This document shows, piece after piece, positions 44,909-64,000 of a DNA stretch of 64,000 nt. Within the stretch, counting starts at the first letter, position 1. Every line of letters starts with the position of its first letter. The translations under genes and the position numbers were made by a program. The notes under the pieces are model-generated. The model searched no databases. It was given only the letters and a program-made list of their open reading frames with translations, and was not told the origin of the DNA. This stretch comes from a virus. Location: the IMG/VR virus record IMGVR_UViG_3300044535_000472, positions 58,615 to 122,614 of that record, one strand, 5' to 3'.

Positions 44909-45524
44909 TCTTTTTTATTTCATAATAATAACTATTAGAATCTTCAGATACCCACTTATCAGATTGGGCCTCAACGGACTCTATATGCGTATCTACTTTA
45001 AATGTAGAAGGTTCTACAGGAAATGGCTTTGTAACCCAATTAGAATCTCTCCAGTATATTCTATTATTAGGTTGACAAAGTAAATAACCATCATCTGCAA
45101 TTAAAATATGCCCACATTTATAATCAGATGGCTCATCAGAGTAAGGATTTTTATACCAATCTACTGTCATTAAATATGTAGCCCATATCATACTACCATC
45201 TTTTAAAACTACTTGACAGCGTTTTTCATATAGATAATCATATGTAATAACAGATATATTTTCTGAAAAGCAATCCCATAGTTGTTTAAAATGAAATGGA
45301 ATATCGCTTTTAGGTATTTCCATATATATTTCTGAAATAGGTACTCTTGATCTAAGCATACCGTAATCAGTCATAACATGAAAAGTTAATATTTTACCAG
45401 CTAAAGATTGTACTGCAAAAGCATAAGCTTTATGGTACGTATTATTATCAGCTTCATCTTTTGTAAAATGCGATGCTTTTACATAACACTTAAAAAGTTC
45501 TATATTTTCATTAAGCTTTGACAT
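44883..45524 (-). CDS. Hypothetical phage protein, 213 aa
   Basis: Clean ORF overlapping both neighbours. Confidence 0.6.
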   Translation of the reverse strand: MSKLNENIELFKCYVKASHFTKDEADNNTYHKAYAFAVQSLAGKILTFHVMTDYGMLRSRVPISEIYMEIPKSDIPFHFKQLWDCFSENISVITYDYLYEKRCQVVLKDGSMIWATYLMTVDWYKNPYSDEPSDYKCGHILIADDGYLLCQPNNRIYWRDSNWVTKPFPVEPSTFKVDTHIESVEAQSDKWVSEDSNSYYYEIKKIEDDSQTI

Positions 45525-46332: not shown

Positions 46333-46336
46333 AGTT

Positions 46337-47200
46337 TTACTTATTATACGGAATTTTATAACTTATGATTTTAAGATCATCTTCTCTACTAAAAAACTTA
46401 ATAAATACTTCGCAAGTATCATTCTGATATGAGTGCATTAAGAAAAAACCTATAGATGGTCTATACTTTCTAAACCAAAATTCAAATAATCTATGGTCAT
46501 ATTGGTATAGTTCATAAATAGTTTGCTTCCAACGTCCATATATATTACATACATTATTTTTATCTAGGGCAGATTGAATAATATCTGCAGCATCATTTAT
46601 AAGTTTTCCGTAATCACCTTCGTCATATATACTACCCTTAGCAATTTTAGTAGCATTCATTGTCTCATAATACTCAACAAGCTCATAATTTTTAAAAAAA
46701 CATGCCTTATCACAAAGGTTAGGTTCATCTAAAAGCTCATCAGTTATATCTAAATTCAAGTTATAATCTTCTTGAGTATATACTTTATTATTAATTTTCT
46801 TAAGTATAGTGGGTTTAAAAAGAGTTTTAGGATCAACAGGTATTTCTACTAGTTCTTCAACAAGTTCATCAATAGGTGATGGCTTTTCACTAGCTTCTAA
46901 TCTTGCAGTTATATCATCCTCTTCTTCTTCGCTCATTACAGCAAACCATCTTCCTTGTGGGCATGCTGATGACATGCTGTAAGTTTTATACTTAAGCGAA
47001 CATCCGCAATCACCACAGCAAGGATGAGTTCCGGGTACCTCACACTTATCACCTTTGAGATCAATAAGAGGACATGTGCTACAGATATCGTACCTGTAAC
47101 TTGCTATTTTTTCAATCTTCTTACGAGTAAAGTAATAGTTAAACATCCCTTCAAGGATTAACCATTTACTCTTCCAGATTTTCTTGATCTTGTTTACCAT
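46337..47200 (-). CDS. Protein with N-terminal Cys-rich Zn-binding-like domain, 287 aa
   Basis: RYDICSTCP...CEVPGTHPCCGDCGCSL...CPQGRW. Confidence 0.6.
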   Translation of the reverse strand: MVNKIKKIWKSKWLILEGMFNYYFTRKKIEKIASYRYDICSTCPLIDLKGDKCEVPGTHPCCGDCGCSLKYKTYSMSSACPQGRWFAVMSEEEEDDITARLEASEKPSPIDELVEELVEIPVDPKTLFKPTILKKINNKVYTQEDYNLNLDITDELLDEPNLCDKACFFKNYELVEYYETMNATKIAKGSIYDEGDYGKLINDAADIIQSALDKNNVCNIYGRWKQTIYELYQYDHRLFEFWFRKYRPSIGFFLMHSYQNDTCEVFIKFFSREDDLKIISYKIPYNK

Positions 47201-47555
47201 ATCGTTTTTCTATAACGGTTTGTTTTATCTCTTTATAACTTTCTAGTTCTTGCTGTATCTCTAGGAGACGTTTAAGTCGACTATCCGTTAAACTATAAGC
47301 CTGGTACTTATTAAAGGTTTTTGGGACAGGTGCTTTTTGGTATTCCCTATAGACATCAATAGTTCTACTTAATGTTTTTGGCATTACTTCAAAAGTACCA
47401 AGATTTATAACATCAAGTCTAGGTGACGTTAAGTTAGTCATTTGCTTTCGTAAGCTTCCCCAATAAAAGTCAAGAACATCTCTAACAAGGTTCTCGTCTA
47501 GTTGAAGATCACTCGCTACTTCGCTGTAAAGGGTTTTCGCTTTCTTGGGATTCAA
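47166..47555 (-). CDS. HU/IHF-like DNA-binding protein
   Basis: LYSEVASDLQLDENLVRDVLDFYW...LDVINLGTFEV, the HU helix-helix-beta pattern. Confidence 0.7.
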   Translation of the reverse strand: MNPKKAKTLYSEVASDLQLDENLVRDVLDFYWGSLRKQMTNLTSPRLDVINLGTFEVMPKTLSRTIDVYREYQKAPVPKTFNKYQAYSLTDSRLKRLLEIQQELESYKEIKQTVIEKRYGKQDQENLEE

Positions 47556-47913
47556 CTCTTACCATTTTATAGTCTAACAAAATATTACCCGTTGTTTGGA
47601 TCATAATCTCTGGGTTAAGCTTAATGCGTTTCTTAGCCTTACCATTTTTAAATACATTTACCAAACCGCGTCGCTGACCTTTAGATATTGCATTTCTTAC
47701 GGATTGGCTATTGCCGAAAATGTTATTATCGGCAACAGCATTACAAAAATCCGCAAGTTCTTTTTCACCTGAGATTGCCAAGTAAGTTAAGCAATTAAGG
47801 TCACGATCAGATACTGAAATGTTTTTTAAATGGCAATGCACATTAAGCTGAAAACGTACTATGTCCCATAGGTTCATACGTACTTTTTTCTGTACTTGAT
47901 TTACTACTGCCAT
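47509..47913 (-). CDS. Possible winged-helix DNA-binding protein
   Basis: Helix, then SQSVRNAISKGQRRGLVNV, then a beta hairpin. Confidence 0.45.
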   Translation of the reverse strand: MAVVNQVQKKVRMNLWDIVRFQLNVHCHLKNISVSDRDLNCLTYLAISGEKELADFCNAVADNNIFGNSQSVRNAISKGQRRGLVNVFKNGKAKKRIKLNPEIMIQTTGNILLDYKMVRVESQESENPLQRSSE

Positions 47914-47919
47914 GATAAA

Positions 47920-48195
47920 TTACTTTTCTTTTCTTAAAACGCGTTTTCTAATCTCAGCCGTTTCTTCTGCAGTCTCCGGTGCATCATCACCTTCTTGTGG
48001 AGCTGGCGCCATAATTTGAGCTTGACGCATTTGAGCTACTAAACGTCTTGCGCGCAACTCTTCAATTTCTGTGGCAAGTGTTTCATAGTCTTTTTGCAAT
48101 TGAAGAACTTCAATTTGCTCACTGTAAAAAGCCATTAACTCAGCTTTCTTCTCCTCAATTTGTTCAGGAGTAAACATTTCTTGTTGGTTTTCCAT
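47920..48195 (-). CDS. Coiled-coil hypothetical protein (likely start MENQQE at 48195)
   Basis: Heptad pattern; a TATATTTG promoter-like element lies upstream. Confidence 0.55.
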   Translation of the reverse strand: MENQQEMFTPEQIEEKKAELMAFYSEQIEVLQLQKDYETLATEIEELRARRLVAQMRQAQIMAPAPQEGDDAPETAEETAEIRKRVLRKEK

Positions 48196-48259
48196 AACTT
48201 TTATATATTTAGGTTTAGACAAATATATAATAAAAAGTTTAAACTCCAAATGTTTAGAC

Positions 48260-48291
48260 AAAAAAATACCCAGGCACGTTTGCCCAGGTAT
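48260..48291 (-). terminator. Intrinsic terminator
   Basis: Minus strand ATACCTGGGCA-AACG-TGCCTGGGTAT followed by a T-run. Confidence 0.75.
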
Positions 48292-48322
48292 CTTAACCTA
48301 AATCATATTAACTTATGTTGAA

Positions 48323-48676
48323 TTAAGACTTTTTACCGTCTTCTTCTCTTTTTGCTTTTATGTATCCAGTAAGTTCTGCAATGTTAGTACTTAACTGTGT
48401 CATATGCGTAGTAAGGTTGTCCATCTTTAGATCAAGCTTCTCGTGTGCAGCCTTCTGATCTTCTTTAAGTATATCCATTCTATTATAGATGCTTGTTTCT
48501 TTGGCCATGAGATCACTTTCTAAAGATACCATATCTCCACCAAGTTTGTCTACTTTCCCTTTTAACTTACCTAGCTCTTGCTTAAGAGCGTAGTATGCAG
48601 ATAGTCCTGATCCTATTGTCATTGCTATCCAGATTACATCTTTGGTGCTAAACATCCATGCTTCTGCTGATCCCAT
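48323..48676 (-). CDS. Holin-like membrane protein (one TM helix plus coiled coil)
   Basis: VIWIAMTIGSGLSAYYAL hydrophobic segment followed by a long coiled coil; lies at the end of the tail operon. Confidence 0.45.
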   Translation of the reverse strand: MGSAEAWMFSTKDVIWIAMTIGSGLSAYYALKQELGKLKGKVDKLGGDMVSLESDLMAKETSIYNRMDILKEDQKAAHEKLDLKMDNLTTHMTQLSTNIAELTGYIKAKREEDGKKS

Positions 48677-48710
48677 AACTTAAATATATATATACTTATA
48701 ATATACAAAA

Positions 48711-48869
48711 TTATTGCTGACTTTTCAAATTTTGAAGCTCTTGGTATATAGCAAGAAGCTGCGCTTCTTTTTGCGCTATCAATTCTTCTTTCGTTGGTTC
48801 TTCTACTTCAATGAACTCAACTCTTACAAGTCCATTTTCGTCATAAATTTCGTTTCTTACTTGTGGCAT
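48711..48869 (-). CDS. Small tail-fibre-associated protein, 52 aa
   Basis: MPQVRNEIYDENGLVRVEF...; true start lies inside the longer track ORF. Confidence 0.55.
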   Translation of the reverse strand: MPQVRNEIYDENGLVRVEFIEVEEPTKEELIAQKEAQLLAIYQELQNLKSQQ

Positions 48870-48873
48870 ATTA

Positions 48874-49527
48874 TTAAGCTTTAGTGATTCCGATATATTG
48901 CAAATTCTGGCTAATAAATGAAGAGCCAGCGGCAAATGTAGCTGGTGTTGGTGTTGCAAAAGTTAACGCATAAAAAACCGAATTTGCTGCACTTGTTACT
49001 CCGTTCATTCTTAAAGGTATTGATTGCGTTTGCAATATGCAAGATAAAGAACCAGCAGTCGCGCCACCATGAAAAGCAAGCCAATATATTGTGCCTGCCA
49101 CAAAATTAAATGTTGTTAATGCTGTTTTTTGTCCAGTTGTTGAACAATCCAAATCACTGCTCACAAATAATCTTGAATTTGGATAACCATCGAGATCGCT
49201 GTAAATTGCTATTCGACATAAAGAGCCAGCAACACCAGAGTTTACGTTAATAAATAAATTCGATGCTGTAAAACTTTGTGCGGGAATAAATGGGTAGGCG
49301 ACTAATCTATTCGCTGTGAAGTTTGTGCTTGACAAAGGGTTAATTGAAATTGTAATCGCACTTGTAGCACCACCGCTTGGCAAAGGTAAAAATGTATGTG
49401 CACCAAATGCACCACCGCTATACTGTGGAATGTTCAACGTAGCACCTGTTAAAGTAGCTGCGCCACTTGTTCCCGTTGTCGTTAAAGTGAGTTTCTCTTG
49501 TCCAATTATGTTAATTTCTGTGCTCAT
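48874..49527 (-). CDS. Tail appendage/C1q-like beta protein, 217 aa
   Basis: TGTSGAATLTGATLNIPQY linker followed by a Thr/Gly-rich beta domain. Confidence 0.55.
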   Translation of the reverse strand: MSTEINIIGQEKLTLTTTGTSGAATLTGATLNIPQYSGGAFGAHTFLPLPSGGATSAITISINPLSSTNFTANRLVAYPFIPAQSFTASNLFINVNSGVAGSLCRIAIYSDLDGYPNSRLFVSSDLDCSTTGQKTALTTFNFVAGTIYWLAFHGGATAGSLSCILQTQSIPLRMNGVTSAANSVFYALTFATPTPATFAAGSSFISQNLQYIGITKA

Positions 49528-49538
49528 ATTAATATGTT

Positions 49539-50789
49539 TTATCTACTTATTTCTTCCCAATCCATTGATACGTATGCTCCTAAAGTTCCCCCAATTGTAT
49601 CTATTGCCATTTCAACTACTATTTCAAGAGGTGTGCTTGTAAAAGAATTTCTCTCTAATTGACTAGCAAATATTGCCTCTTTTAATATATTGATACTTGG
49701 AGAACCTTGGTTAGATGAATTTACATATCCTTGCGCTAAAATTCTACCACCTGAAACTGTAGTTCCTGTAAGGTTATATTCTACAGATGAATCTGCTCCT
49801 GCTGAAACCCAAGATCCTCCTGTTGTTATAGCAGATTGCACAATTCTCCATGCATAGTTTTTACCATTACCAATTCCTAATAAAGATACTGCTGTGGTTA
49901 TGACTACAGCATCCAATGTAGCAGCCTTAAGTCTAATTCCTACCATTGGATAATACGTTCCTGCTGCAGCAAAAGTTTTTGGTGTAGTAATAGGAGTTCC
50001 AACTGCGAGTTGAGCACCCCTAAGTTCATATCCTCCCTCAGATATTACAGTAGAACAAACTTGCTTTAATGTACTAGCACTTGCTGTTGCCCCTGTATTA
50101 GTTATCTCATATCTTAACGGTAGAGATGCGGTAGTAATATAAGTTGAAGTAATTAAATTAGCATGATGAAATTTATGGCAAATATAGAATTGACCATTAA
50201 TTACAAAACCTAATCTAACTGTTCCCACTCCTAGCCACTCAACATCCATGAAAAGTATCTGAGCTTTGGTTATATCTAGGGTAATTCCCGATGGCCCTGT
50301 GCCATTCATCTTATCCACATTCCAAGAAGATTGATCAACAGTAGTTTCTGTAATTGCACCTGTAACTAAAGTCCTTTCTACAAAACTTAGAGTAGAGTTA
50401 TTAAGTTGTAAGTAAAATCCATTATCCCTACTAAAGTAACCTACTCTTTGTCTAAGATTAGTTTTGGTAGGAGCCATTACAAATGTATTCAACACAAGTA
50501 ATGACTTACCTGGTTGATATGAGAATACTTTAAAAGTTTCTCTTAGTACTTGGGATCCGCTTGTTGTATTTACATTTAGGTCTACTAAACCTTGACTTGC
50601 ATTAAATACTGCTGCTCCTCCACTTGCTGTAGCAGTAGCCCATAACCCGTTATCTTTATATCTATGTGAAGAATCAAATAGAGTTAAGGGATTTGATACT
50701 CTTAATCTACCAAACGCATCTGCTAACATTGGATCATTAGCAACTATTGATTGATTAGATACGCTAGAAGTAGATATTATAGTACTCAT
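49539..50789 (-). CDS. Virion structural protein, 416 aa
   Basis: DAFGRLRVSNPLTLFDS motif, familiar from aquatic phage structural proteins. Confidence 0.65.
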   Translation of the reverse strand: MSTIISTSSVSNQSIVANDPMLADAFGRLRVSNPLTLFDSSHRYKDNGLWATATASGGAAVFNASQGLVDLNVNTTSGSQVLRETFKVFSYQPGKSLLVLNTFVMAPTKTNLRQRVGYFSRDNGFYLQLNNSTLSFVERTLVTGAITETTVDQSSWNVDKMNGTGPSGITLDITKAQILFMDVEWLGVGTVRLGFVINGQFYICHKFHHANLITSTYITTASLPLRYEITNTGATASASTLKQVCSTVISEGGYELRGAQLAVGTPITTPKTFAAAGTYYPMVGIRLKAATLDAVVITTAVSLLGIGNGKNYAWRIVQSAITTGGSWVSAGADSSVEYNLTGTTVSGGRILAQGYVNSSNQGSPSINILKEAIFASQLERNSFTSTPLEIVVEMAIDTIGGTLGAYVSMDWEEISR

Positions 50790-51226
50790 TATGTAATTGA
50801 GATAATTAGTAATTCTCCACCTGCTCCTGTAGCGTTGTAAGATACAGAACCTAGTGTATTGTTAATAGCACCAGCGTCAAAGTTCATTGTTTCACCAGGC
50901 TTTAATGTAACACCACCAACTGTTGCGTTGATGGTTCCTACATTAGCAAATGACATTGAGTATCTACCTGCTGCTATAGTACCTGATGTATTAGCAGGTC
51001 TAAGGAAAGTAGGGGTTCTTTGAACACCTGTTCCACCATCTACAGTTATGGAGTTACCACCATCCTGAATGTTTACTGCACCAGCACCACCTGGGTTTAC
51101 TACAGTGACGTCAATGCCAGCAAGAACATTGTTAATGATACTTTGAAGACCTTGCAATACTTTTAACTCATAGTTAAAGTTAGAACCTTTATCTCCACTT
51201 TTTGGGTTTCCGTTTCCTAGTGACAT
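50789..51226 (-). CDS. Tail-associated structural protein, 145 aa
   Basis: In operon; helical N-terminus and beta C-terminus. Confidence 0.55.
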   Translation of the reverse strand: MSLGNGNPKSGDKGSNFNYELKVLQGLQSIINNVLAGIDVTVVNPGGAGAVNIQDGGNSITVDGGTGVQRTPTFLRPANTSGTIAAGRYSMSFANVGTINATVGGVTLKPGETMNFDAGAINNTLGSVSYNATGAGGELLIISIT

Positions 51227-51228
51227 AA

Positions 51229-51606
51229 TTAGAATCTTATTTGTCTTTGGTTATCATAATGCTCGGGACCTTTAGCAACTCTGCAGTTAATAAGACCACT
51301 GTAAATTACTTCATCATCTTGGTTAGTGCTACTAAAGATAACAGCATCAATTAGCTTATATGTTTCTTCATCTCCCAATTCAGGCTTATGCTCAGCATAT
51401 AATGCTTCAATAGTAGCTAACTCAGCTTCAGTAATTTCTCCGTTAGGGTTAGCTGCTAAGTATTCTGTAATAGTTGTTTTTAAAGCTTCTATAGCTGCCT
51501 CATTTTCAGGATCTTGAGAGTTAAGTAACTCTAGTTCCTCTGCGGTAAACGGATAACTATTTGGAGTTGCCCATGTACCTTCTTCAATTGATTTATATAG
51601 TTTCAT
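51229..51606 (-). CDS. Acidic hypothetical protein, 125 aa
   Basis: In operon with 2-nt spacing. Confidence 0.55.
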   Translation of the reverse strand: MKLYKSIEEGTWATPNSYPFTAEELELLNSQDPENEAAIEALKTTITEYLAANPNGEITEAELATIEALYAEHKPELGDEETYKLIDAVIFSSTNQDDEVIYSGLINCRVAKGPEHYDNQRQIRF

Positions 51607-51608
51607 AA

Positions 51609-53435
51609 TTATAGAGTTTTAATAGTGTTAGTGCTATCTATACAAAGTACAGCTTTTGTTCCACCTATAGATGTGTAAAAAGATCCAGTAGTTTTTACAC
51701 AGTAGAATGCTTTACCATTTAATTTTGATAAAAGTGTGGTATCATTATTTCCAAAAGAGTTACCACCTCCTACACAGTTTATAAATGTACCATTTAAGTT
51801 TCCTGGAGGCTTTGATCCAAAGCTACTATCTGAAGCTACACAGTTATAAAAATAACCTGGGGCATCATTAGCTCCAAATGCAGCAGCTAACGCTTTGCAG
51901 TTCATAAAAGTTCCTGTAGCGTTTACACCAAAAGAACCACCACTACTATCGCTTATACAGTTATAAAAACTTCCGCTTGCTGTTCCAAAATATAAGGGGT
52001 TAACAGTAGTTCCAAAACCAAATACATTAAGACCACCTATTGTTCTACAACCTGTAAATACTCCTGATGCTGAAATACCACCAAAGGCACCTTCACCGGG
52101 ACCTCCTGGAAAAATAACTGTACAATCTGTGAAGGTTCCGCTTGCTGTAGCATTATAGTTAGTAGGATTCGAACCAAAACTATAACCATTTGCTGTGCAG
52201 TTAGTAAATGTACCAGCAACAGTTACGTTATTTACACCTACTCCAAATGAAATATAACCTGCTGTACAGTTTTCAAATATTGCACCTGGACCAATACTTA
52301 CACTACCTGACACAGAATTAAATGCTGCACCAAATGAAAATGCACCTACACCTCCGCCTGGTAATTTACAGTTATAAAACTGACCGCCAATTGTTACGTT
52401 TGATGTGCTACCGTTAGTACATCCAAAACTATAACCGAAGGCTAAACAGTTGGTGAATATTCCATTTACAGATACATTACCTGCTTGCGAGTATCCAAAG
52501 GAGCCATTACCACTTGCTGTACAATCTGTATATGTACCATTATTATTTACTATTCCTGTAGAAAGAGCTGCGCCAAATGAGTTACCACCAGATGTACAAT
52601 TTTTAAAACGTGCCGATACGCTTACGCTAACAGTTCCTGAATCGGTTGCTCCAAAAGAACCTGGACCAGCGGTGCAATTTTCAAAACTCCTACCAATTGT
52701 AATAAATGCTGTATTATCAGAGTCTGGAGGTGTTATATACGGAAAAGGAACTGTATTGACCACACAAGATCCAAATGAGTTATTCCCTGCTGAGCAGTCT
52801 TTAAATGCGCAAGATAACCCAAACATTCCGCTTGTTCCTGTTCCAAATGAATAGGGCCCAGCATGACAGTTTGTGAAAGAAGAAGCACTTGCGCCGGTTG
52901 ATCCAATTAATATTTGACCACCAAAGTAAGTATTAGTATCAAGACCCGTGTATTCACACCACATGGCATTTGCGCAAAATGTACTAATTTGCACATCAGT
53001 TCTCCCATCTGCATCGTAATTAGCTGTAAGACCGCGAAGATTAATGTAAGGTTCAGTAAGTTCCCAGCCAAATGTGCCGTTATAAGCAGACATATCATAC
53101 GTTCCTGGAGCTATAATAATAGTAAATGTATTATTATTACTTCTAGGAATACCGTAAGGTGTTGATGCTGCTGCAATATCATATGCAGCTTTTAGTTCTG
53201 CACCGTTTACAGTAGGGTCATTACTACCTCCTTTTACAAGGATATATGATTCACCTTGAAGACCGCCTACAGCTTTTGCAAAGTCTTCTACGGTCATACC
53301 ATATGACTGGTACTTATCTCCGCGTTTAGCAAATGATACATTGCTACCTAGAATAACAAGATCTTGTGTAGGATCTTGTACTTCTTTTTTTATTAGTCTG
53401 TTTTTGAGTAGGTATACCCAGTTTATAATATCCAT
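51609..53435 (-). CDS. Tail fibre/spike with MDIxNW anchor and beta-solenoid repeats, 608 aa
   Basis: About 15 F-x-[ND]-C...[SA]-F-G repeats. Confidence 0.7.
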   Translation of the reverse strand: MDIINWVYLLKNRLIKKEVQDPTQDLVILGSNVSFAKRGDKYQSYGMTVEDFAKAVGGLQGESYILVKGGSNDPTVNGAELKAAYDIAAASTPYGIPRSNNNTFTIIIAPGTYDMSAYNGTFGWELTEPYINLRGLTANYDADGRTDVQISTFCANAMWCEYTGLDTNTYFGGQILIGSTGASASSFTNCHAGPYSFGTGTSGMFGLSCAFKDCSAGNNSFGSCVVNTVPFPYITPPDSDNTAFITIGRSFENCTAGPGSFGATDSGTVSVSVSARFKNCTSGGNSFGAALSTGIVNNNGTYTDCTASGNGSFGYSQAGNVSVNGIFTNCLAFGYSFGCTNGSTSNVTIGGQFYNCKLPGGGVGAFSFGAAFNSVSGSVSIGPGAIFENCTAGYISFGVGVNNVTVAGTFTNCTANGYSFGSNPTNYNATASGTFTDCTVIFPGGPGEGAFGGISASGVFTGCRTIGGLNVFGFGTTVNPLYFGTASGSFYNCISDSSGGSFGVNATGTFMNCKALAAAFGANDAPGYFYNCVASDSSFGSKPPGNLNGTFINCVGGGNSFGNNDTTLLSKLNGKAFYCVKTTGSFYTSIGGTKAVLCIDSTNTIKTL

Positions 53436-55621: not shown

Positions 55622-57276
55622 CGTGGTGTTGTGAATTTTTGTTTAAATAGGTAGTAGTCTACTATAAATGTTTGTAAAGATGTTGTACCTACTTGTTTCT
55701 GTACAACGGTTCCCCAGTAAGCGGCTCTTGCAGCTCCAGTTGGTATATTAGTAGTATGTGTTGCAACAAGAGTTCCGTTTATGTAAAATAAAACTTGTGT
55801 ACCGGCATCATTTACTTCTATTCTTAATTTGGTATAAGAACCAACAACTACTACAGAAGTTGTGGTAAATGTTCTTACATTATTTGAGGAGGTAACACAT
55901 TGCCAGTTAGGTGATGCTGTACTTCCACTTGATACACCGCCCTCATCGTATAAAAAGTATGCACCGTCTACTTGGTTGGGTGCTGCAAATACATCAAAAA
56001 AACCAAATATCGCATAATACCTTTCTGCAGGTGAACTTGCCGCATTTCTTTGAAAACCGTATTCATTTACTATTCTACCATTACCTAAGATAAATGGGGT
56101 TCTGGTAAAAATACCTGCAGCACCATTTGTAGTTGTACCAAGTATAAATGTTGTATTACCTTGACCTCTACCTAAAATATTTGCACCTGTATTTAATCCA
56201 GTACCTGCACCACTATTTGTAGCAGTAAAAATTATATCATCTGAACCAATACCGTCACTAAAATAATCTATACCGTTGTTTGCATACCATTGACTATTTG
56301 CATTGACTGGCATCCATCCCCAAAATGTATCAAAGTATTCAACACAACTTGTTGTTGTATTAAATATCTGAAGTCCAACTGCTGGTGAAGTGATAGCATC
56401 TCTTTGTGTTGTGGTCATGCGAGGAGGAAGGAAGCCGCGAGTTGTACTTGTTATATCAAGCATTGCTGAAGCATTTGGTCCGTATGTACCAACACCTAAT
56501 TGACCATTTATAACACCTCCTCCGCTATGTTCAAAATATCCTGTTTTTAACACACGGAATCTCATAACTGCACCAACTTGTAAATTCATTAATTCTGACA
56601 CACTATTACTCGCTGTGTCAGTTATATTTAACTTAAATGCTATTGGTGTTCCTGTTGTGTTCCAAGTTTGACTAATATCCAAAGCACTTGTTGCCGCGCT
56701 TCCTGTCAGCGTTGCAGGTGTTATTGTAGTTGTACCACTTACCCTCGCAGTCCCATTCACGTCTAATCTGAACCCTGCGTCTGTTTGTGTTCCTGTTGAA
56801 AGAAGTAAATTACCTGTGCCAAATAAAGTACCAATAACAGCAACAGAAGAATTGTATAATGTTAAATTAGTTGTTGCTAACGCTAAGTTATTAGCCCATA
56901 TGCTGCCGCAATTTACATTTCTGCTAAACCAACCATCTCTAAATCTTGTTGCAGAAACTCCTATATCATAAGTTGCGCTTGTTTGAGCAAGTATGTTTTG
57001 TGTTGTCGTTGTTCCTGCTATTTGTAATGTTGTAGCAGGCAAAGCCGTACCAATCCCCAACCTATTATTAACTTGATCCCAGAATAGGTTAGATGATTCT
57101 TGTAGTACATTACCTGTGCCTTCAAAGAGTATACGTCCTGCAGTACCACCTGTAATAGGGGTACTATTTACTATAAGCGTTGCTGGAATAACTGGTACTT
57201 TAGGTTTACCGTTTATACCCGTTATCTCAAGACCACCTACACCATATATGTTACCATTAGAATCCGTTAGTTGCAT
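55618..57276 (-). CDS. Tail fibre protein, 552 aa
   Basis: RLGIGT repeat. ASAMLDITSTTRGFLPPRMTTTQRDAI..PAVGLQIFNTTT is a motif common in Bacteroidota and their phages. Lectin-like C-terminus. Confidence 0.75.
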   Translation of the reverse strand: MQLTDSNGNIYGVGGLEITGINGKPKVPVIPATLIVNSTPITGGTAGRILFEGTGNVLQESSNLFWDQVNNRLGIGTALPATTLQIAGTTTTQNILAQTSATYDIGVSATRFRDGWFSRNVNCGSIWANNLALATTNLTLYNSSVAVIGTLFGTGNLLLSTGTQTDAGFRLDVNGTARVSGTTTITPATLTGSAATSALDISQTWNTTGTPIAFKLNITDTASNSVSELMNLQVGAVMRFRVLKTGYFEHSGGGVINGQLGVGTYGPNASAMLDITSTTRGFLPPRMTTTQRDAITSPAVGLQIFNTTTSCVEYFDTFWGWMPVNANSQWYANNGIDYFSDGIGSDDIIFTATNSGAGTGLNTGANILGRGQGNTTFILGTTTNGAAGIFTRTPFILGNGRIVNEYGFQRNAASSPAERYYAIFGFFDVFAAPNQVDGAYFLYDEGGVSSGSTASPNWQCVTSSNNVRTFTTTSVVVVGSYTKLRIEVNDAGTQVLFYINGTLVATHTTNIPTGAARAAYWGTVVQKQVGTTSLQTFIVDYYLFKQKFTTPR

Positions 57277-57277
57277 A

Positions 57278-57598
57278 TTAAACTTCTTGTACTAATACTA
57301 CATACTGTGTACCTGGTGCTGTTGTTATAATATATAACTGATCACCTACATCAAAGCTATATGTAAAAGTATCAGTTAAAATATCCCCAGCCGCTAAATT
57401 TACGGTATATATAGAAGTGGTTACAGGGCCAACTGCTTTTACCTTTCTTAAGGTAACAGAATTAGCTGCTGGATTTTGCAATCTTATAGATTGTGAAAAT
57501 GCAGCATTTAAACCTCCCGGTCTTGTGTAAATAAGGTTACTTCCGGCAGGTAATGTTCCTTCTAATGATATTACTCCCATATATATAAGATACCACAA
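57278..57598 (-). CDS. Small beta-rich structural protein (start may be 57580)
   Basis: First gene of the minus-strand operon. Confidence 0.55.
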   Translation of the reverse strand: MWYLIYMGVISLEGTLPAGSNLIYTRPGGLNAAFSQSIRLQNPAANSVTLRKVKAVGPVTTSIYTVNLAAGDILTDTFTYSFDVGDQLYIITTAPGTQYVVLVQEV

Positions 57599-57671
57599 AT
57601 ATAAAAAATTTCATATAAAAGTGTGTAGTATTAAAATTTTTTCTTAATCTTGTGTAAGATATCCACATCTT

Positions 57672-58673
57672 ATGAATAAGATTACCGCCACTGGCAAACT
57701 CGCTAAACAGTATCTTAAGAAGTATCCTAAGCTTCCTATCCAAACAATTGCTAAAATTATGCTCGCCGAAAATGAACTGCACTTCAATAGTGTAGATCAC
57801 GCGCGCTCACTACTGAAGCGGCATTCAGGCTTAGGTGGTAAGGAAACAAGGAAAAATGTAGATCCAGAATTACAAAGACCTATAACATATAATTATGCAC
57901 CATTTAATGACATACCAAAATCATATAAGTCTGGACCTAATGACTTTGTACTACCAAATGATGCTAATCATATTCTTGTTCTTTCTGATATACACTTTCC
58001 TTATCACGATGAAGAAGCTCTGGGTGCGGCTATTCAATATGGCATACAACAGCAGGTTAATACAATACTTCTTAACGGTGATATTCTAGATTTTTACCAG
58101 CTGTCACGCTTTGATAAGGACCCGAGCAAACCTAAGATGCAAGTAGAACTTGAACAAGGTAGATGGTTTATGAAAGCACTACGCACAGCATTTCCAAAAG
58201 CTAGAATCTATTATAAGATTGGTAACCACGAAGACAGACTTGAGAAGTGGCTAAGAATCAAAGCACCAGAGTGGATTGGGATGGATGAGTTTGAGTTAAA
58301 GATGTTATTACGCTTTGGGGAAAACCAAATAGAACTCATTGATTCAGATGCTACTATTAAAGTAGGTAACTTAAACATTATACATGGTCACGAATATTTA
58401 GGAGGTGGTACCGTAAATCCAGCAAGAAATTTGTATCTTAAAGCTAAGGCCAGTACTATTTGCGGACACTTCCATAGAAAATCAGAGTTTGTTACACGTG
58501 ATATTAACAACAACATTCAAGGTGCTTGGACAACAGGATGTTTATGTGAGTTATATCCCGAGTACATGAAAGGGCATAGCGATTGGGTACACGGCTTTGC
58601 AGTTATTAAGATAGAGAAGGATGGTTCCTTTTCAGTAGATAACAAAATGATTATTGACGGTAATGTAGTATAA
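57672..58673 (+). CDS. Calcineurin-like metallophosphoesterase with N-terminal helical/HTH-like extension
   Basis: Motifs SDIH, NGDILD, GNHE, HGHE, GHFH in order. Confidence 0.9.
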   Translation: MNKITATGKLAKQYLKKYPKLPIQTIAKIMLAENELHFNSVDHARSLLKRHSGLGGKETRKNVDPELQRPITYNYAPFNDIPKSYKSGPNDFVLPNDANHILVLSDIHFPYHDEEALGAAIQYGIQQQVNTILLNGDILDFYQLSRFDKDPSKPKMQVELEQGRWFMKALRTAFPKARIYYKIGNHEDRLEKWLRIKAPEWIGMDEFELKMLLRFGENQIELIDSDATIKVGNLNIIHGHEYLGGGTVNPARNLYLKAKASTICGHFHRKSEFVTRDINNNIQGAWTTGCLCELYPEYMKGHSDWVHGFAVIKIEKDGSFSVDNKMIIDGNVV

Positions 58674-58675
58674 CA

Positions 58676-58897
58676 ATGGCAACAACTATTAAAGCTGGAA
58701 TTTATGTAGACCCGCTTAGCGAGGATGAGTCTACCCCTGAGATCTATATTGATCACAGCATGATCCAGATATATAGTCAGGAGGATATCCTTGTTGTACA
58801 ACTAAGCTATGAAGAACTTCGCGGTGTCTTAGCCATCATGGCGGCAGAACAAGAAAAAACTCACCTGCGCATTCAGGCTATCGGTAGGAATAACTAG
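58676..58897 (+). CDS. Hypothetical protein, 73 aa
   Basis: 2 nt after the phosphoesterase stop. Confidence 0.6.
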   Translation: MATTIKAGIYVDPLSEDESTPEIYIDHSMIQIYSQEDILVVQLSYEELRGVLAIMAAEQEKTHLRIQAIGRNN

Positions 58898-58978
58898 AAG
58901 GCGGGTGTTCCCTCATCCATATTCATATACCATGTAAAGAGTATCCACCTAAGATCATCTGATAACTTAGGTAAGTGG

Positions 58979-59158
58979 TTATATATTTCGTTCAGCTCTT
59001 TCAAGGGCGCGGTTGTATAACTGGTACAAAGATACATTTATTATATCTACTTCAGCTACCCTATGCTCACCAACTAGGTGTATCATAAGCAAGGTAAACT
59101 TATAGTAGTCTAGCGGGTGTTTCCCAACTGGGAGCATTTTAACTATTTCCGGCATCAT
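58979..59158 (-). CDS. Possible small protein, 59 aa (MMPEIVKMLPVGKHPLDYY...)
   Basis: Manual translation. TATATTTG (Bacteroidota -7-type TAnnTTTG) lies on the minus strand at 59166-59173. Confidence 0.35.
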   Translation of the reverse strand: MMPEIVKMLPVGKHPLDYYKFTLLMIHLVGEHRVAEVDIINVSLYQLYNRALERAERNI

Positions 59159-60014
59159 CTCGTAACAAATATATATGTAAAATTGTTACCACACTAAAGT
59201 ATGGAATTGGATACCGTAAACAGATATATTGACCTTTGTGTCTTAAAAGTCATACTATAGTGTGATTTTATACCCTATAAGGGATGTTATCCTATGTGGG
59301 TAATATGACCCGTACCCTGGAGGGTATATATTAGATAGATGTTATAAACCACATCTGTCGCAATTATAGTAAACTTTTGCGACAGCTATTGTGGAAAATA
59401 ATCACCAGAATCAGGCTTTTAGTGGAAAATAATCCCCAACTCCTACTCGCTTACTGGAAAATATTTACCAAACTCTGTAACAAAACATGGACAAACTCGG
59501 AAGTTTCCCGAATTATCTGCATGAATTTTTCCAAATTTTGCATGCAAACAGGGGACCCCTTGGTATAGTACAATATGCAATTACATATAGAACCCTGGAT
59601 CTTGACCATTATAATATGCAGGAGCATATAGTTAGGAATGTCCAGTTTATTGCACAAAAAACTTGACATTACCGGTTCTCCTACATATACCCTCGTAGGG
59701 AATAAGACAATCAACCTACCCCCGGTAGTAAGGTTAGGTGGGGACACCCCCAGGGGGGATGGAGGTAGGGGAAATTTAATGTGGTAGATGATGTGAGGGG
59801 TATACTACAAATCAACCCCCGGCTTTAAACTTTTTAGGGGGTACCCCCCATGAAATTTGAAACATTTCATTTAAAAGTTGAAATCCAAAGAAAACATTTT
59901 ATCTATTGAAAAATGTTTATACGTCATATAACTATGACATGGTTGATTTGAGTTGCACAACAAAGACTTGAGTTGTTGTGTTGTGCCACCCGTCCCCGAC
60001 CACCACCCCTAGAT

Positions 60015-60030
60015 ATGTTGCAAGCAACAT
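60015..60030 (+). promoter_or_regulatory. Palindrome ATGTTGC-AA-GCAACAT upstream of the first early-type gene
   Basis: Perfect 7-bp inverted repeat with a TTGC/GCAA core shared with downstream elements. Confidence 0.45.
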
Positions 60031-60065
60031 CATTGATACAACTTATTATTCATAATCTTAAGATA

Positions 60066-60269
60066 ATGAATAACTTTTTACACTCGCTAGTAGGTCATAC
60101 TGACCTATATCAAGCTAAAAAGCAAGTGATTAGTGAAATCCTTGCCTTCACCAAGTTTCCCAAATCACGCACAAGTCGTGCATATCTTTGGGGCAAAGAC
60201 ATTCAAGACCTTGCGGTAATGCACCGTGAGCTATTGACATATCACACTATGCAATTGGAAATCGCTTAG
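60066..60269 (+). CDS. Early-type hypothetical protein, 67 aa
   Basis: ATG at 60066 after an A/T-rich leader; terminator at the stop. Confidence 0.7.
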   Translation: MNNFLHSLVGHTDLYQAKKQVISEILAFTKFPKSRTSRAYLWGKDIQDLAVMHRELLTYHTMQLEIA

Positions 60270-60282
60270 GCGATTTCTTTTT
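60258..60282 (+). terminator. Intrinsic terminator overlapping the stop codon
   Basis: GAAATCGC-TTAG-GCGATTTC followed by TTTTT. Confidence 0.8.
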
Positions 60283-60325
60283 GCTTTGCAATTAATAATA
60301 CAACTTATCTTTCATAATCATAATT

Positions 60326-60508
60326 ATGAAAAAATTCATGTTAATCATTACAATTATCGCATGGCTAGATAGCCTTGCGCTAATCTTCATTACTAACACT
60401 TTGCCGCACATCAGCAGTAAACCATTAGTTAATGGCTTCCTGATCTTCTGTGCAGGATTCATCTCGTACTTGATATACTATCAATTACGCGATATGAGAA
60501 AGGCTTAG
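60326..60508 (+). CDS. Small two-TM membrane protein, 60 aa
   Basis: Two hydrophobic segments. Confidence 0.65.
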   Translation: MKKFMLIITIIAWLDSLALIFITNTLPHISSKPLVNGFLIFCAGFISYLIYYQLRDMRKA

Positions 60509-60526
60509 GCCTTTCTCTTTTCTTTT
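60496..60526 (+). terminator. Intrinsic terminator overlapping the stop codon
   Basis: GAGAAAGGC-TTAG-GCCTTTCTC followed by TTTTCTTTT. Confidence 0.8.
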
Positions 60527-60588
60527 GCTGCGCAATAGGCAATACACCATATACTAATAAAATCAGTTTCACTTAATTTAAATTTATC

Positions 60589-60960
60589 ATGGTAGAACCA
60601 ATCAAAATTCAAATCGCGTTATCAGATTTATTAGACGTCATCAACGCAAGCAGCAATCCTATAGTTGCAGCTGCTGTTCTTGATGGCTCTTATGCAAGCC
60701 CACTTCAAGATAAAGATCTTGTAGGTCGCTTTCATAAGAACTTTAACATCAAGAAAGATGACGACACGCGTGACCATTATTTGCTCTTGTTCCAAGGCTA
60801 CAATAAATGGTCCGATGAGGTGACATTTAAGAAAGATCACCCCAACGCGTGGTCCGGCAACAACACCATGTCTTTAGCAGAATGGCGTGCTGCCTATGAC
60901 TTTGAGCCTTCTACACTTGGCAAGGCTGATACCAAGGCATCAACCGTTGGCCAATTCTAA
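60589..60960 (+). CDS. Early-type hypothetical protein, 123 aa
   Basis: Clean ORF bounded by a motif upstream and a terminator downstream. Confidence 0.7.
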   Translation: MVEPIKIQIALSDLLDVINASSNPIVAAAVLDGSYASPLQDKDLVGRFHKNFNIKKDDDTRDHYLLLFQGYNKWSDEVTFKKDHPNAWSGNNTMSLAEWRAAYDFEPSTLGKADTKASTVGQF

Positions 60961-60967
60961 GGCTCAT

Positions 60968-60995
60968 GAAACCCCTTCGGGGGTTTCTTTTTTTT
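60968..60995 (+). terminator. Intrinsic terminator
   Basis: GAAACCCC-TTCG-GGGGTTTC followed by T8. Confidence 0.9.
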
Positions 60996-61045
60996 GCTAC
61001 GCAAATAGATAATACTACATATCCTTGAAAATAAATTATCAAACT

Positions 61046-61453
61046 ATGAGTTTAAAAATTCAATTTCAGCGTTCTTACCGCAAGGCCGGTAAAACGCCCG
61101 GCGCGCCTTCTCGCCTAATCTTCGTATATCTTGTAATCGGTACTGCAGAGCAGTTAACCGAGTTCCGAGATATCCAAAGTGCAAATCTGCGTGAAGATGA
61201 AAAGGGAAACCCTTTGTTCTTCACTAGCAGATATGCAGGCGAGACAGCAATGCTTACGCTTAACCATTCGGGTACTGACTACTACGTAGACAATACCGAG
61301 ATGGATAAGCAAGCATCACTGGTTGCACAATTCGGCGGTAATCTTGGTCAAGCAATTGCTATGCAAATTGCAGCCCAAGCCACCGGCCGAGTGCAACAGC
61401 CCGCCCCCGCTGCGGTACCCGCTGACAAGACACAAGGTCTTGGCACCGTGTAA
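61046..61453 (+). CDS. Early-type protein, paralog A (135 aa from MSLKIQF)
   Basis: Roughly half identical by eye to 61893..62285. Confidence 0.8.
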   Translation: MSLKIQFQRSYRKAGKTPGAPSRLIFVYLVIGTAEQLTEFRDIQSANLREDEKGNPLFFTSRYAGETAMLTLNHSGTDYYVDNTEMDKQASLVAQFGGNLGQAIAMQIAAQATGRVQQPAPAAVPADKTQGLGTV

Positions 61454-61464
61454 CTACGCGGTAC

Positions 61465-61494
61465 ACCCTACTCTTCGGAGTAGGGTTTTTTTTT
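61465..61494 (+). terminator. Intrinsic terminator
   Basis: ACCCTACTC-TTCG-GAGTAGGGT followed by a T-run. Confidence 0.9.
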
Positions 61495-61699
61495 GCTCTG
61501 CAAGTTTTTATATCCTATCTCTTGTCCCTTGTCATTGGTACAATAGTAATTGTATATAATTATATCCGTAGGAAGCCGTAAATGTATACACGTATATAGT
61601 TATTCTTGGATTCCTATGTATATACCTCACACGGGACACATACACACTTATACACTGAAACACAATGAGTTAGCGTATATAGATACTTGTAAACCTAAA

Positions 61700-61820
61700 T
61701 ATCGCTCGCGCTTCGCGCTCGCTCTAATGCTTCGCATTTATTTTTAGCTCGCTTCGCTCGCTTTATTCGCTACGCGAATTTTTTAGATACTACTCATCTT
61801 CGCTGCGCTCGATGAGTTTG
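61700..61820. repeat. Cluster of five GC-NNN-GC mini-hairpins
   Basis: GCGC-TTC-GCGC, AATGC-TTC-GCATT, GC-TTC-GC, ATTCGC-TAC-GCGAAT, and GC-TGC-GC nested in an ACTCATC/GATGAGT stem. Confidence 0.75.
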
Positions 61821-61892
61821 CCGAGTACTGAGTACAGGTGAACCGGGTAAGCGTGAATATTAATCAATTTATAATCAATTAATTAGGGGCTT

Positions 61893-62285
61893 ATGAGCAC
61901 ACTACAATTGACATTTGCGCGCCAGTATCGCAAGAAACAAACTGGCAAGTTGGTATTCGTGTATAATGTGAAGGGCACTGCCGCACAATTAGATGAGTAC
62001 CGTGATGCACAGGGTAGTTACCTTGTGGAAGATGAGAAAGGACAACCATTGTTCTTTACATCTCGCTATGTGGGTGAGTCTTGCCCGCTTGTTGCTAACC
62101 ATAACGGGGACGGATTCTATGCCGACACCACGGAGATGGACAAGCAAGCTGCGATGGTGCAGCAGTTTGGTGGTAATTTGGGCCAAGCGTTGGCTGCACA
62201 GATTGCTGCAAGCGTTGCGGGTAAAGGTGTTGCTACCTCACAAGTGGCAAGTGCACCAGTGTCTAAAGGATTAGGCACAGTTTAA
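61893..62285 (+). CDS. Early-type protein, paralog B (130 aa)
   Basis: Shares EDEKG.PLFFTSRY, TEMDKQA, QFGGNLGQA and the terminal GLGTV with paralog A. Confidence 0.8.
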   Translation: MSTLQLTFARQYRKKQTGKLVFVYNVKGTAAQLDEYRDAQGSYLVEDEKGQPLFFTSRYVGESCPLVANHNGDGFYADTTEMDKQAAMVQQFGGNLGQALAAQIAASVAGKGVATSQVASAPVSKGLGTV

Positions 62286-62586
62286 TGCTAACTAATTGAG
62301 TATCAGTGTGTTTGTGAGTTAATAACACACTGATGCTCTTTCTTATTAGTATTGCAATGTACAATGAAGTGCGACAAATGAACGCGCACTAGATAGCTAA
62401 GGGATTGTAGTACGAGTACTCTTCCCTGTATTAATGCATCATAACTTACTTCACAAGGGTAAGCAGTTATTACGTTATGGAAAACACGCGGCTCATACCT
62501 AGTCTTTAAGGACACTATGCCATAATGTGATAACTGAATGCAGAGTGGTACAATAGAATGTTTAACCCTTTAATACTTATACGTAT

Positions 62587-62823
62587 ATGTATATAGGAAG
62601 CGAGAAGGCCCAAGAGTTGGGTAACCGGGCTATTGATAACCCGAGTTTATTGGACAGGCTAGATGAAGATACCTTTATCAAGTTTGTTGTGTGTATATCT
62701 AAACACGATAAGTCATTAGCCTCAAGGGTATTTGACTTAAAGTATGATAAGATATCAGCCCAAGGTAAAGTTTTATTTTGGGAAGCAGTAGGAATGTTAA
62801 CTAAACCAGAAGAGTATGTCTAA
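62587..62823 (+). CDS. Hypothetical protein, 78 aa
   Basis: ORF track; overlaps the next gene. Confidence 0.55.
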   Translation: MYIGSEKAQELGNRAIDNPSLLDRLDEDTFIKFVVCISKHDKSLASRVFDLKYDKISAQGKVLFWEAVGMLTKPEEYV

Positions 62824-63004
62824 AGTCATATTGTTTTTCTACTTGTTAACCGGGAAGGTTGAGAAGGTAGACGGGTTGTATACGATACATACTACTGAGA
62901 GTTCTGTTATTGAGTACGCTTGTGAGGGTGAAGTATTAGAGTATATAGAGACAGGTGTCTTTAGATATGATGATAACCTTGCAAAGCCAGGTGAGTTGGA
63001 ATAG
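62816..63004 (+). CDS. Hypothetical protein, 62 aa
   Basis: ORF track; coupled to the previous gene. Confidence 0.5.
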   Translation: MSKVILFFYLLTGKVEKVDGLYTIHTTESSVIEYACEGEVLEYIETGVFRYDDNLAKPGELE

Positions 63005-63041
63005 GTAGGAAGCCGGGGAGTTTTGTGATGATTTTCTCCCC

Positions 63042-63479
63042 GTGCTGTTCTATATTTTTGAAACAATGTTTAACTTAACACCTAATAAAATGGAAAGAAG
63101 GTCGTTTGCAATTGGGCTTGCTATAGCCTCAGCAATCTGGATTGGTACAATGTGTATGTATTTATATGCACAACCAAGTACAGAGTCTAATGTAGAACCG
63201 CATGTGGTTTATGGATATCCTCCTCACAGTATCTGTGATACTCTTGTAGTTGGAGATAGTCTCTTACAACACGAGAGAGTAGTTTACTACGAGCGTGGTT
63301 ATTTTACTTGTCTTCGTGATGCAAACCCAAGAATGTATAACGCCTATATATTAGGAGTATATCAATTAAAGGGTGTTGAAGATTTTAATGTTATTGACAG
63401 TGTTGTATCTGATTTGGCTTTTCAATATAAGTTTAGCCCTGATGATCGTGAATATTTATACACATTAATAACTGATTAA
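63042..63479 (+). CDS. Membrane-anchored or secreted hypothetical protein (start may be a downstream Met)
   Basis: Hydrophobic AIGLAIASAIWIGTMCMYLYA segment after basic residues. Confidence 0.6.
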   Translation: MLFYIFETMFNLTPNKMERRSFAIGLAIASAIWIGTMCMYLYAQPSTESNVEPHVVYGYPPHSICDTLVVGDSLLQHERVVYYERGYFTCLRDANPRMYNAYILGVYQLKGVEDFNVIDSVVSDLAFQYKFSPDDREYLYTLITD

Positions 63480-63480
63480 G

Positions 63481-63699
63481 ATGACAAGAGAACTTGCTAG
63501 AATTAAGACCATACAGAAGTTTACTAACTTACTTGATGGCACGTTGTTACCAGGATATAGTGTGGCTCAAGTAATTAGTTACTATGAGTCACAGCTTCTT
63601 GGTGTTCCTACTGATAATATTAGTAGGATAGATGGTATCACCGCTAAATTTATGGAGGATTATATAAATAATCTCGATGATGGTGATCAAATATTGTAA
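63481..63699 (+). CDS. Hypothetical protein, 72 aa
   Basis: 1 nt after the previous stop. Confidence 0.6.
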   Translation: MTRELARIKTIQKFTNLLDGTLLPGYSVAQVISYYESQLLGVPTDNISRIDGITAKFMEDYINNLDDGDQIL

Positions 63700-64000
63700 A
63701 GTGAAGAATGCATACAGCACTATAAAAATACTTATGGTAAAGTTAAAACGCATTCTGTATCTTTACAATCTATTATGCATTAACCCGCAAGGGTGAACAG
63801 TTGTGATATTTATCTCGCAGACCTTGTACTAAAGTGGAGTGCCCACCTTGGAAGCTGATAGATATTACAACTGAATGCATAATTATTTATAGCCCATAAG
63901 GGCAAATTTTAAAATTATATACCTTACATTATTCAATTGAAGTTAAATGGTGACGCCTATAATCTATTAGGCTATGTGTATTTACCCGAAGGTCAGTCTA

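Follow-up and report, generated by a model that had tools for sequence, protein, structure and literature searches.

The final 64 kb of the 122,614-bp virus contig IMGVR_UViG_3300044535_000472 (64,000 nucleotides, here called the window, to which all coordinates refer unless given as genome positions) contain at 60015-62285 a series of small genes alternating with short repeated DNA elements. We propose that this region represents an array of self-contained early cassettes, each consisting of a promoter, a small gene and an intrinsic terminator. The putative promoters would combine two elements: an inverted repeat with TTGC-loop-GCAA as its near-invariant core and, downstream of it, a box of the form (A/G)ATAC(A/T)(A/C)C-(A/T)TAT, whose first base lies 11-14 nt from the centre of the loop. 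We hold with high confidence that the units are promoters. Very probably they are early promoters, and they are probably read by a polymerase which the phage itself encodes. The six hairpin sites were numbered P1 to P6 in their order on the plus strand, the minus strand being the template strand, and the array comprises the following features:

60015-60030, plus strand: P1 hairpin ATGTTGC-AA-GCAACAT, the first promoter of the array, with a 2-nt spacer, a 7-bp stem and no terminator upstream
60035-60056, plus strand: P1 box GATACAAC-TTAT, then CATAAT (60051-60056)
60066-60269, plus strand: small early open reading frame (ORF), 67 aa, no known family
60257-60284, plus strand: intrinsic terminator 1 with a 9-bp stem (60257-60278), TTAG loop and T-run
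60281-60291, plus strand: P2 hairpin TTGC-TTT-GCAA, template loop AAA
60297-60318, plus strand: P2 box AATACAAC-TTAT, then CATAAT
60326-60508, plus strand: small early ORF, 60 aa
60496-60524, plus strand: intrinsic terminator 2, stem 60496-60517
60525-60535, plus strand: P3 hairpin TTGC-TGC-GCAA, template loop GCA
60541-60562, plus strand: P3 box AATACACC-ATAT, then TAAAAT
60589-60960, plus strand: early ORF, 123 aa
60968-60995, plus strand: intrinsic terminator 3, stem 60968-60987
60993-61005, plus strand: P4 hairpin TTTGC-TAC-GCAAA, template loop GTA (GAA in near relatives)
61011-61033, plus strand: P4 box AATACTAC-ATAT, then GAAAAT
61046-61453, plus strand: early ORF, 135 aa, a paralogue of the ORF at 61893-62285 with 56% identity
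61356-61366, plus strand: intragenic TTGC-TAT-GCAA, negative control (coding or chance copy)
61465-61494, plus strand: intrinsic terminator 4, stem 61465-61486
61493-61516, plus strand: P5 hairpin TTGC-TCT-GCAA, template loop AGA, with a degenerate box (ATATCCT; ATATAC in relatives)
61700-61760, plus strand: cluster of GC-TTC-GC mini-hairpins (GCGC-TTC-GCGC, AATGC-TTC-GCATT and GC-TTC-GC), all with template loop GAA
61765-61797, plus strand: P6 hairpin ATTCGC-TAC-GCGAAT (61765-61779) and box GATACTAC-TCAT (from 61786)
61893-62285, plus strand: early ORF, 130 aa, used as probe for related metagenome loci

An initial annotation of this DNA had described five hairpin elements as candidate promoters for a virion RNA polymerase. 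All five were found where it had placed them (60015, 60281, 60525, 60993 and 61493), and the loops AAA, GCA, GTA and AGA which it had read on the template strand are correct. P6, upstream of the 130-aa gene at 61893, is a site additional to these; compared with TTGC/GCAA its stem carries a double change to TCGC/GCGA. The observation that the hairpins directly follow terminator T-runs was borne out for the four sites with a 3-nt loop (P2-P5), each of which begins in a T-run belonging to a clean intrinsic terminator or directly behind it. The box (A/G)ATAC(A/T)(A/C)C follows 5-8 nt after the hairpin and is in turn followed by the small gene, the box of P5 being degenerate. Boxes had been reported after four of the five hairpins and are present, although the sequence quoted as gatacaaac is really GATACAAC.

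The motif is enriched and concentrated in one place. The sequence TTGCNNNGCAA occurs seven times in the window, with 1.47 +/- 1.16 copies expected, and none of 100 dinucleotide shuffles reached seven. Five of its eight copies in the 122.6-kb genome are located inside 1.2 kb. Similarly, six of the 14 genome-wide matches to ATAC-NN-C-N-[TC]AT lie in 59919-61787, all of them on the plus strand. The genome-wide scan for restriction to the early region, which the initial annotation had suggested as a check, hence places the motif at the start of the plus-strand block. This block starts at 57672 with a metallophosphoesterase gene, runs off the end of the contig and resumes at genome position 1, from where it continues to helicases, primase and DNA polymerase, so that the hairpin-box array stands at the head of the block leading into these genes. 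Copies of TTGC-N3-GCAA outside the promoter context look different: those at 448 and 5190 have the loop T-N-A, and the control copy at 61356 has neither terminator nor box, its loop being unconstrained in relatives (TAT or GAT; GAT in L003 and L181). P5 heads a 390-nt ORF-free stretch (61504-61892) with TATAC-rich repeats and GC-TTC-GC mini-hairpins. GCTTCGC is found four times in forward and never in reverse orientation genome-wide, and three of the four copies belong to the cluster at 61700-61760.

For the analysis of relatives the 130-aa early protein served as probe and yielded four IMG/VR contigs which keep the motif; an alignment of the early-protein family (A1) extended the collection to 48 metagenome loci. 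The twenty closest loci (77-100% amino-acid identity) contain dense hairpin-box arrays with up to 13 units in 3.4 kb. A total of 89 unique promoter-context copies, belonging to about 50 families, were collected regardless of loop content; the selection required the core stem pairs to pair, and only pairs 5-7 are unbiased by it. An IMG/VR scan for a T-run followed by TTGCTNNGCAA and AATAC returned the combination in context only on the four contigs already known, and the remaining 61 matches were single, which is about the number estimated for chance.

The loop follows a clear rule in these copies. On the coding strand 74 of the 80 three-base loops read T-N-Y (TAC 25, TTC 22, TTT 7, TCT 7, TCC 6, TGC 5, TGT 1 and TAT 1), which corresponds to 58 G-N-A and 16 A-N-A loops on the template strand. 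According to a review of DNA mini-hairpins, exceptional stability is restricted to triloops of the G-N-A type and tetraloops of the G-N-N-A type with GC/GC closure, and it is such a G-N-A mini-hairpin that the N4 virion polymerase binds (PMC13037366). The loop length ranges from 2 to 4 nt across sites while the arms stay complementary, as is illustrated by the orthologous first promoters ACTTGC-TTC-GCAAGT, CTTGC-TGT-GCAAG, CTTGC-TGAC-GCAAG and CTTGC-TCAC-GCAAG; in the four-base loops the template strand reads G-N-N-A and the arms are unchanged. Complementary arms at a spacing of 2-4 nt argue against an operator for a dimeric regulator, the alternative which the initial annotation had offered.

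Covariation of the stems in relatives, likewise put forward there as a check, was found in the outer pairs; the core TTGC/GCAA hardly varies. At sites without a preceding T-run, the stem lengthens with different yet complementary bases: pair 5 occurs as G:C, C:G and T:A, and pairs 5 and 6 together as TG/CA, AC/GT, AT/AT and TT/AA. In one family of sites both arms have changed, to TCGC/GCGA, and stem changes in one arm only were absent from the 89 copies, except for one T-G wobble. Upstream of the 5' arm, orthologous promoters are unrelated to each other and show either terminators with compensatory changes or GC-rich repeats, which indicates that the conserved module begins exactly at the hairpin.

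Searching from the box instead of the hairpin (ATAC-NN-C-N-[TC]AT) resulted in 101 unique contexts, about five of which look like coding or chance matches, the other 96 being promoter-like. The hairpin is present at 86 of these 96 boxes. Four more represent the site at 59885-59935, where a different AT-rich inverted repeat is found. In the window this repeat, AAAACATTTT...AAAATGTTT, abuts the box ATACGTCATAT about 100 nt upstream of P1, and it is kept in L002, L174 and L178 with a differing loop. The site may be a further promoter of a different design.

By its genes the phage is a distant crAss-like phage and encodes a virion-type two-barrel RNA polymerase homologue, which is in line with the injected RNA polymerase assumed in the initial annotation. 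A crAss-like portal and large terminase are encoded in a long minus-strand block, which comprises the portal gene (39258-42014), the large terminase gene (42018-44231) and genes for giant virion proteins. Among isolates, the closest portal is that of Leptolyngbya phage Lbo-JY46 (32% identity), followed by those of crAss-like phages that infect Bacteroides, Flavobacterium and Cellulophaga. No isolated phage matched 59000-64000 in a megablast search.

The presumed reader of the sites is encoded outside the window by an ORF of 3322 aa on the minus strand (genome positions 43430-53398, L005). It contains the sequence DFDID at residue 2302, and tblastn with its central 1200 residues matched g066 of phi14:2, annotated as 'catalytic RNA polymerase subunit' (E 4e-10), as well as proteins from other crAss-like phages which are annotated as 'putative RNAP catalytic subunit'. 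The DFDxD motif and similarity to gp66, features of the crAss-like virion RNA polymerase, are consequently both found in this protein. It is considerably longer than the phi14:2 enzyme (3322 vs 2180 aa) and about 23% identical to it over the core. Phmmer searches of the 3322-aa and a 1781-aa protein against PDB sequences and a PHROGs search of the former gave no match; the identification as polymerase rests on tblastn and the DFDID motif. This crAss-type two-barrel enzyme is the only polymerase homologue found, and it is not a T7-like single-subunit enzyme such as N4 gp50. A search with PF00940 for a T7-like polymerase returned nothing, but control genomes were equally silent. A sigma-70 region-2 domain was not found in the genome. 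A crAss-like phage's virion RNA polymerase has been structurally characterised; to our knowledge, no promoter has been defined so far for this group of enzymes. Published work on phi14:2 had found no common motif upstream of its early transcripts, and in vitro its gp66 accepts single-stranded DNA as template but does not transcribe double-stranded DNA (10.1101/2020.03.07.982082).

Motif and polymerase vary together among relatives. G006, with a polymerase core 94% identical, has kept hairpin and box, and the motif is lacking where core identity is 30-47%. The latter holds for G001, G002, G003 and G005, in which the phosphoesterase is about 92% and the portal 73-76% identical; the polymerase is among the fastest-evolving genes of these phages. 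More distant carriers of the early-protein family (L196, L198, L211 and L194) have TTACACCCxTTA, TAACCCTCTTTAC or AACCCCTTT in the same architecture. The boxes of the different lineages look like a diverging promoter-box family, and a box that changes by lineage along with a fast-evolving polymerase is what phage-encoded polymerases show, which is circumstantial evidence.

From these observations the following mechanism can be proposed. On the template (minus) strand the inverted repeat would fold into a C:G-closed mini-hairpin with the loop G-N-A or, less often, A-N-A. Transcription would probably start in or beside the box, which would give the sequence specificity. The reader would most likely be the injected two-barrel RNA polymerase of the phage, the 3322-aa homologue of phi14:2 gp66, and the extruded hairpin would either be contacted directly by the polymerase or open the duplex as a single-stranded entry point. 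The latter would suit this polymerase because the phi14:2 enzyme uses only single-stranded templates. We infer from sequence that the genes are early, that the box contains the start, that the virion polymerase is the reader and that the hairpin forms in vivo. Reading of the sites by the virion polymerase has, in our estimation, slightly better than an even chance. The explanation as a whole, with hairpin-box cassettes and an injected polymerase, falls just short of an even chance, and so does a function of the hairpin as a DNA structure, to which we give at best the same weight. Possible rather than probable is the most far-reaching version, in which the sites are the first defined promoter class for crAss-like two-barrel virion RNA polymerases, with a start at an ATAC box just downstream of an extruded G-N-A hairpin of the template strand, an independent reinvention of the N4 solution and a box co-evolving with the polymerase throughout a group of environmental phages.

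Several observations weigh against this explanation, most of them concerning the hairpin. The core TTGC/GCAA is nearly invariant, which makes the covariation evidence thin: its four pairs say little about structure, and reading of TTGC...GCAA as duplex by sequence fits nearly as well. The formal covariation score exceeds that of shuffles modestly and partly by construction of the site selection, and pairs 5-7, which form at about half of the sites, were counted as weak support. A T-T mismatch at position 5 leaves about half of the sites with a 4-bp stem of only -1.6 to -3 kcal/mol. Nearest-neighbour DNA folding gave -1.6 to -4.8 kcal/mol with both strands equal; the model has no term for the G-N-A loop and cannot decide the hairpin question. 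The exceptionally stable mini-hairpin known for G-N-A has not been reported for A-N-A, which makes up 20% of the loops here. The purine-N-A rule of the initial annotation, which describes 74 of the 80 loops, is broken by the other six (8%), namely GTT (four times), ACT and GCT. The spacing between hairpin and box, moreover, varies by 3-4 nt.

Further points of this kind come from the distribution of the elements and from the host side. At six of the 96 boxes (about 6%), which all belong to the L004/L179/L180/L184 lineage, nothing but a terminator or a GC-TGC-GC element is present upstream. The complete relatives G001-G005 contain neither a cluster of the TTGC motif nor an excess of GCTTCGC, and at the same place G003 (L015:9100-11850) has nine cassettes composed of terminator, AAACTCCTTACT and small gene, all of them without mini-hairpin. 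GC-closed hairpins of the TTGC kind with a 3-nt loop were also not found in the first 14 kb of phi14:2. The hairpin is consequently no general requirement of this polymerase family. As judged by this distribution, the box is the general element and the hairpin is clade-specific. The proposal of N4-like promoters for an injected polymerase, made in the initial annotation, hence stands as far as promoter position, orientation and dissimilarity to host-type TAnnTTTG are concerned, and does not extend to a hairpin that sister lineages would share. The hosts may also differ among the lineages, a caveat on the parallel between box and polymerase, and the nearest isolate infects a cyanobacterium. Finally, a -10-like hexamer (CATAAT, TAAAAT or GAAAAT) is located 8-9 nt after the box and would be compatible with a host holoenzyme that uses a non-canonical upstream element.

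These points bear on three other explanations. The ATAC box alone could be the promoter, used by a phage or host polymerase, with the palindrome serving as a duplex site for a regulator, either a shut-off repressor or an injected activator. The wider occurrence of the box would fit this explanation, both at the six boxes without palindrome within the clade and in the box-only cassettes of sister lineages, as would the nearly invariant stem bases with their little covariation and the two-barrel virion polymerase of P23-45, which has its own linear, AT-rich promoter motif (PMC10770324). We nevertheless consider it unlikely, since the spacing of the half-sites shifts between 2 and 4 nt at orthologous sites with the arms kept, the half-site centres are just 7 bp apart, and covarying pairs extend the stems where the T-run is absent. 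In addition, the centre is an asymmetric T-N-Y, whereas a symmetric dimer would favour T-N-A, the loop of the non-promoter copies at 448 and 5190. Very improbable, in our view, is a role of the mini-hairpins as single-strand initiation or priming signals of replication or, at the RNA level, as 5' stem-loops or sites of processing in read-through transcripts. Mini-hairpins of the GCGAAGC type do occur at origins of replication and at priming sites (PMC13037366), and a mini-hairpin cluster lies in the ORF-free 61700-61780. Each gene, however, has a single TTGC site, which lies between terminator and start codon, is always oriented with the gene and is coupled to the box; the G-N-A rule applies to the strand that is absent from the mRNA, and no Rfam family matched.

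Promoters of the host holoenzyme, in which TTG of the 5' arm would be an upstream element and TAT(C/A)(C/T)T or nATAAT the -7/-10 element, are, like the box alone, an unlikely explanation. TATnnT follows TTGCTN after 19-20 bp at every site, nATAAT has a fixed spacing to the box, and phi14:2 has -35/-10-like middle promoters read by the E. coli holoenzyme (10.1101/2020.03.07.982082). These elements are nevertheless 19-20 bp apart as hexamers, or arranged as TTG-N22-TA, instead of the 16-18 bp of sigma-70, and a sigma-70 consensus scan reported none of the six sites. The -7 element TAnnTTTG of Flavobacterium has nearly invariant T-12, A-11, T-8, T-7, T-6 and G-5 (PMC6847099); TATCTTTC, TATTATTC, TATACTAA and TATCCTTG have 3-5 of these six positions. 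A Bacteroidota -33/-7 reading was rejected with this poor -7 match and a spacing 3 nt too long. If an element of the TAnnTTTG type were used at the early sites, the leaders would be just 8-10 nt long, which is atypical. Full matches to TAnnTTTG exist elsewhere in the genome, where they immediately precede a number of late and other genes and include a complete TTTG-N19-TATATTTG, as well as in the phi14:2 promoters P070, P108 and P110, which were assigned to the host polymerase (10.1101/2020.03.07.982082). Furthermore, the motif switches fully between phages with about 92% phosphoesterase and 75% portal identity but differing polymerases. A sigma-54 promoter with TTGC as -12 element was also tried and rejected, as all sites lack GG at -24, 12 nt upstream of the GC in TTGC.

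TAnnTTTG occurs just before start codons at, for example, 48227, 39195, 31458, 57603 and 63053, and leaders are A-rich (AAAACCAAC) and lack Shine-Dalgarno sequences. Both features together suggest a Bacteroidota host, though the nearest isolated relative infects a cyanobacterium. The two early-protein paralogues (61046-61453 and 61893-62285) belong to a family without Pfam match, which was found on 48 environmental contigs with identities down to 37%; the family spans phages with differing early boxes. The ORF-free stretch at 61504-61892 recalls the highly transcribed early intergenic regions of phi14:2 (10.1101/2020.03.07.982082); Rfam and tRNA scans of 57000-64000 gave nothing above threshold. 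In ORF-free DNA TGGTACAATAG occurs twice (61538 and 62548), and GTACAATAG, which is extended -10-like, is also found in L002 and L179. Upstream of the array, three 21-nt direct repeats (TGGAAAATAATCACCAGAATC and variants) with a spacing of 31-32 nt are located at 59377-59480 within a 1.1-kb ORF-poor stretch. Similar repeats, TAGTGGAAAAT, are found in the relative L010, and the ORF-poor stretch is about 71% conserved in L015. The repeats are iteron-like and could be an origin or a regulator array. G and C runs such as ggggacacccccagggggga and agggggtacccccc occur at 59700-59860, the rest of the genome having about 35% G+C; a packaging or terminus signal is conceivable here.

Among known systems, phi14:2 with its gp66 is related through the homologous polymerase with DFDxD, through early genes that head a replication-side block and through long ORF-free early stretches. 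The preference of its enzyme for single strands makes a hairpin or a melted promoter plausible. It differs in lacking a common early motif (10.1101/2020.03.07.982082) and, in its first 14 kb, such hairpins, and its polymerase is the shorter and divergent one described above. Bacteroidota primary-sigma promoters (-33 TTTG / -7 TAnnTTTG), to which the middle promoters of phi14:2 belong, share a T-rich upstream region with TTG and a downstream element initiated by TA. They are distinguished from the sites by the -7 element, of which only 3-5 of six positions are matched, by a spacing that is 3 nt too long here, and by true TAnnTTTG elements elsewhere in the genome. In the T7/T3/SP6 group and P23-45, as in these phages, a short box precedes each early unit and changes by lineage with a fast-evolving polymerase; those promoters are linear duplex, whereas one clade here adds an inverted repeat with a strand-specific loop rule. 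If only the box matters, the lineage-specific boxes would offer a first view of promoter-polymerase co-evolution in this phage group. The set of boxes also marks arrays of early gene cassettes, which are probably involved in host takeover or anti-defence.

The closest likeness is to the promoters P1-P3 of N4 and other Schitoviridae, which are used by the virion RNA polymerase. On the template strand, inverted repeats enclose the GC-rich heptamer of an N4 promoter, which is centred at -11 (PMC4496689). In both systems a GC-N3-GC heptamer lies in an inverted repeat with a C:G-closed 3-base loop; on the template strand this reads G-N-A in N4 and in 58 of the 80 three-base loops here. Stems are 4-7 bp here, many sites having only 4 bp, compared with 5-7 bp as the N4 criterion, and the 11-14 nt from loop centre to box, the presumed start, resemble the distance from -11 to +1 in N4. 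In both cases the promoters head the early region, a presumed one here, and the phage packages an RNA polymerase of its own, which is predicted for the present phage. The reader, however, would be a crAss-type two-barrel enzyme, whereas gp50 of N4 is T7-like. At least six putative promoters are present, one per small gene and located after terminators (P1 without one), instead of three in N4. A strong conserved downstream box, 20% A-N-A loops and the missing hairpin in sister lineages are further differences. As the enzyme is unrelated to that of N4, the likeness would represent convergence and not membership of the N4 family. The clade supplies a sharply defined and highly repeated promoter candidate of about 45 nt together with its natural variants. 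A functional hairpin would mean that injected polymerases of two unrelated kinds, T7-like in N4 and two-barrel in this phage, have arrived at the same DNA mini-hairpin by convergence.

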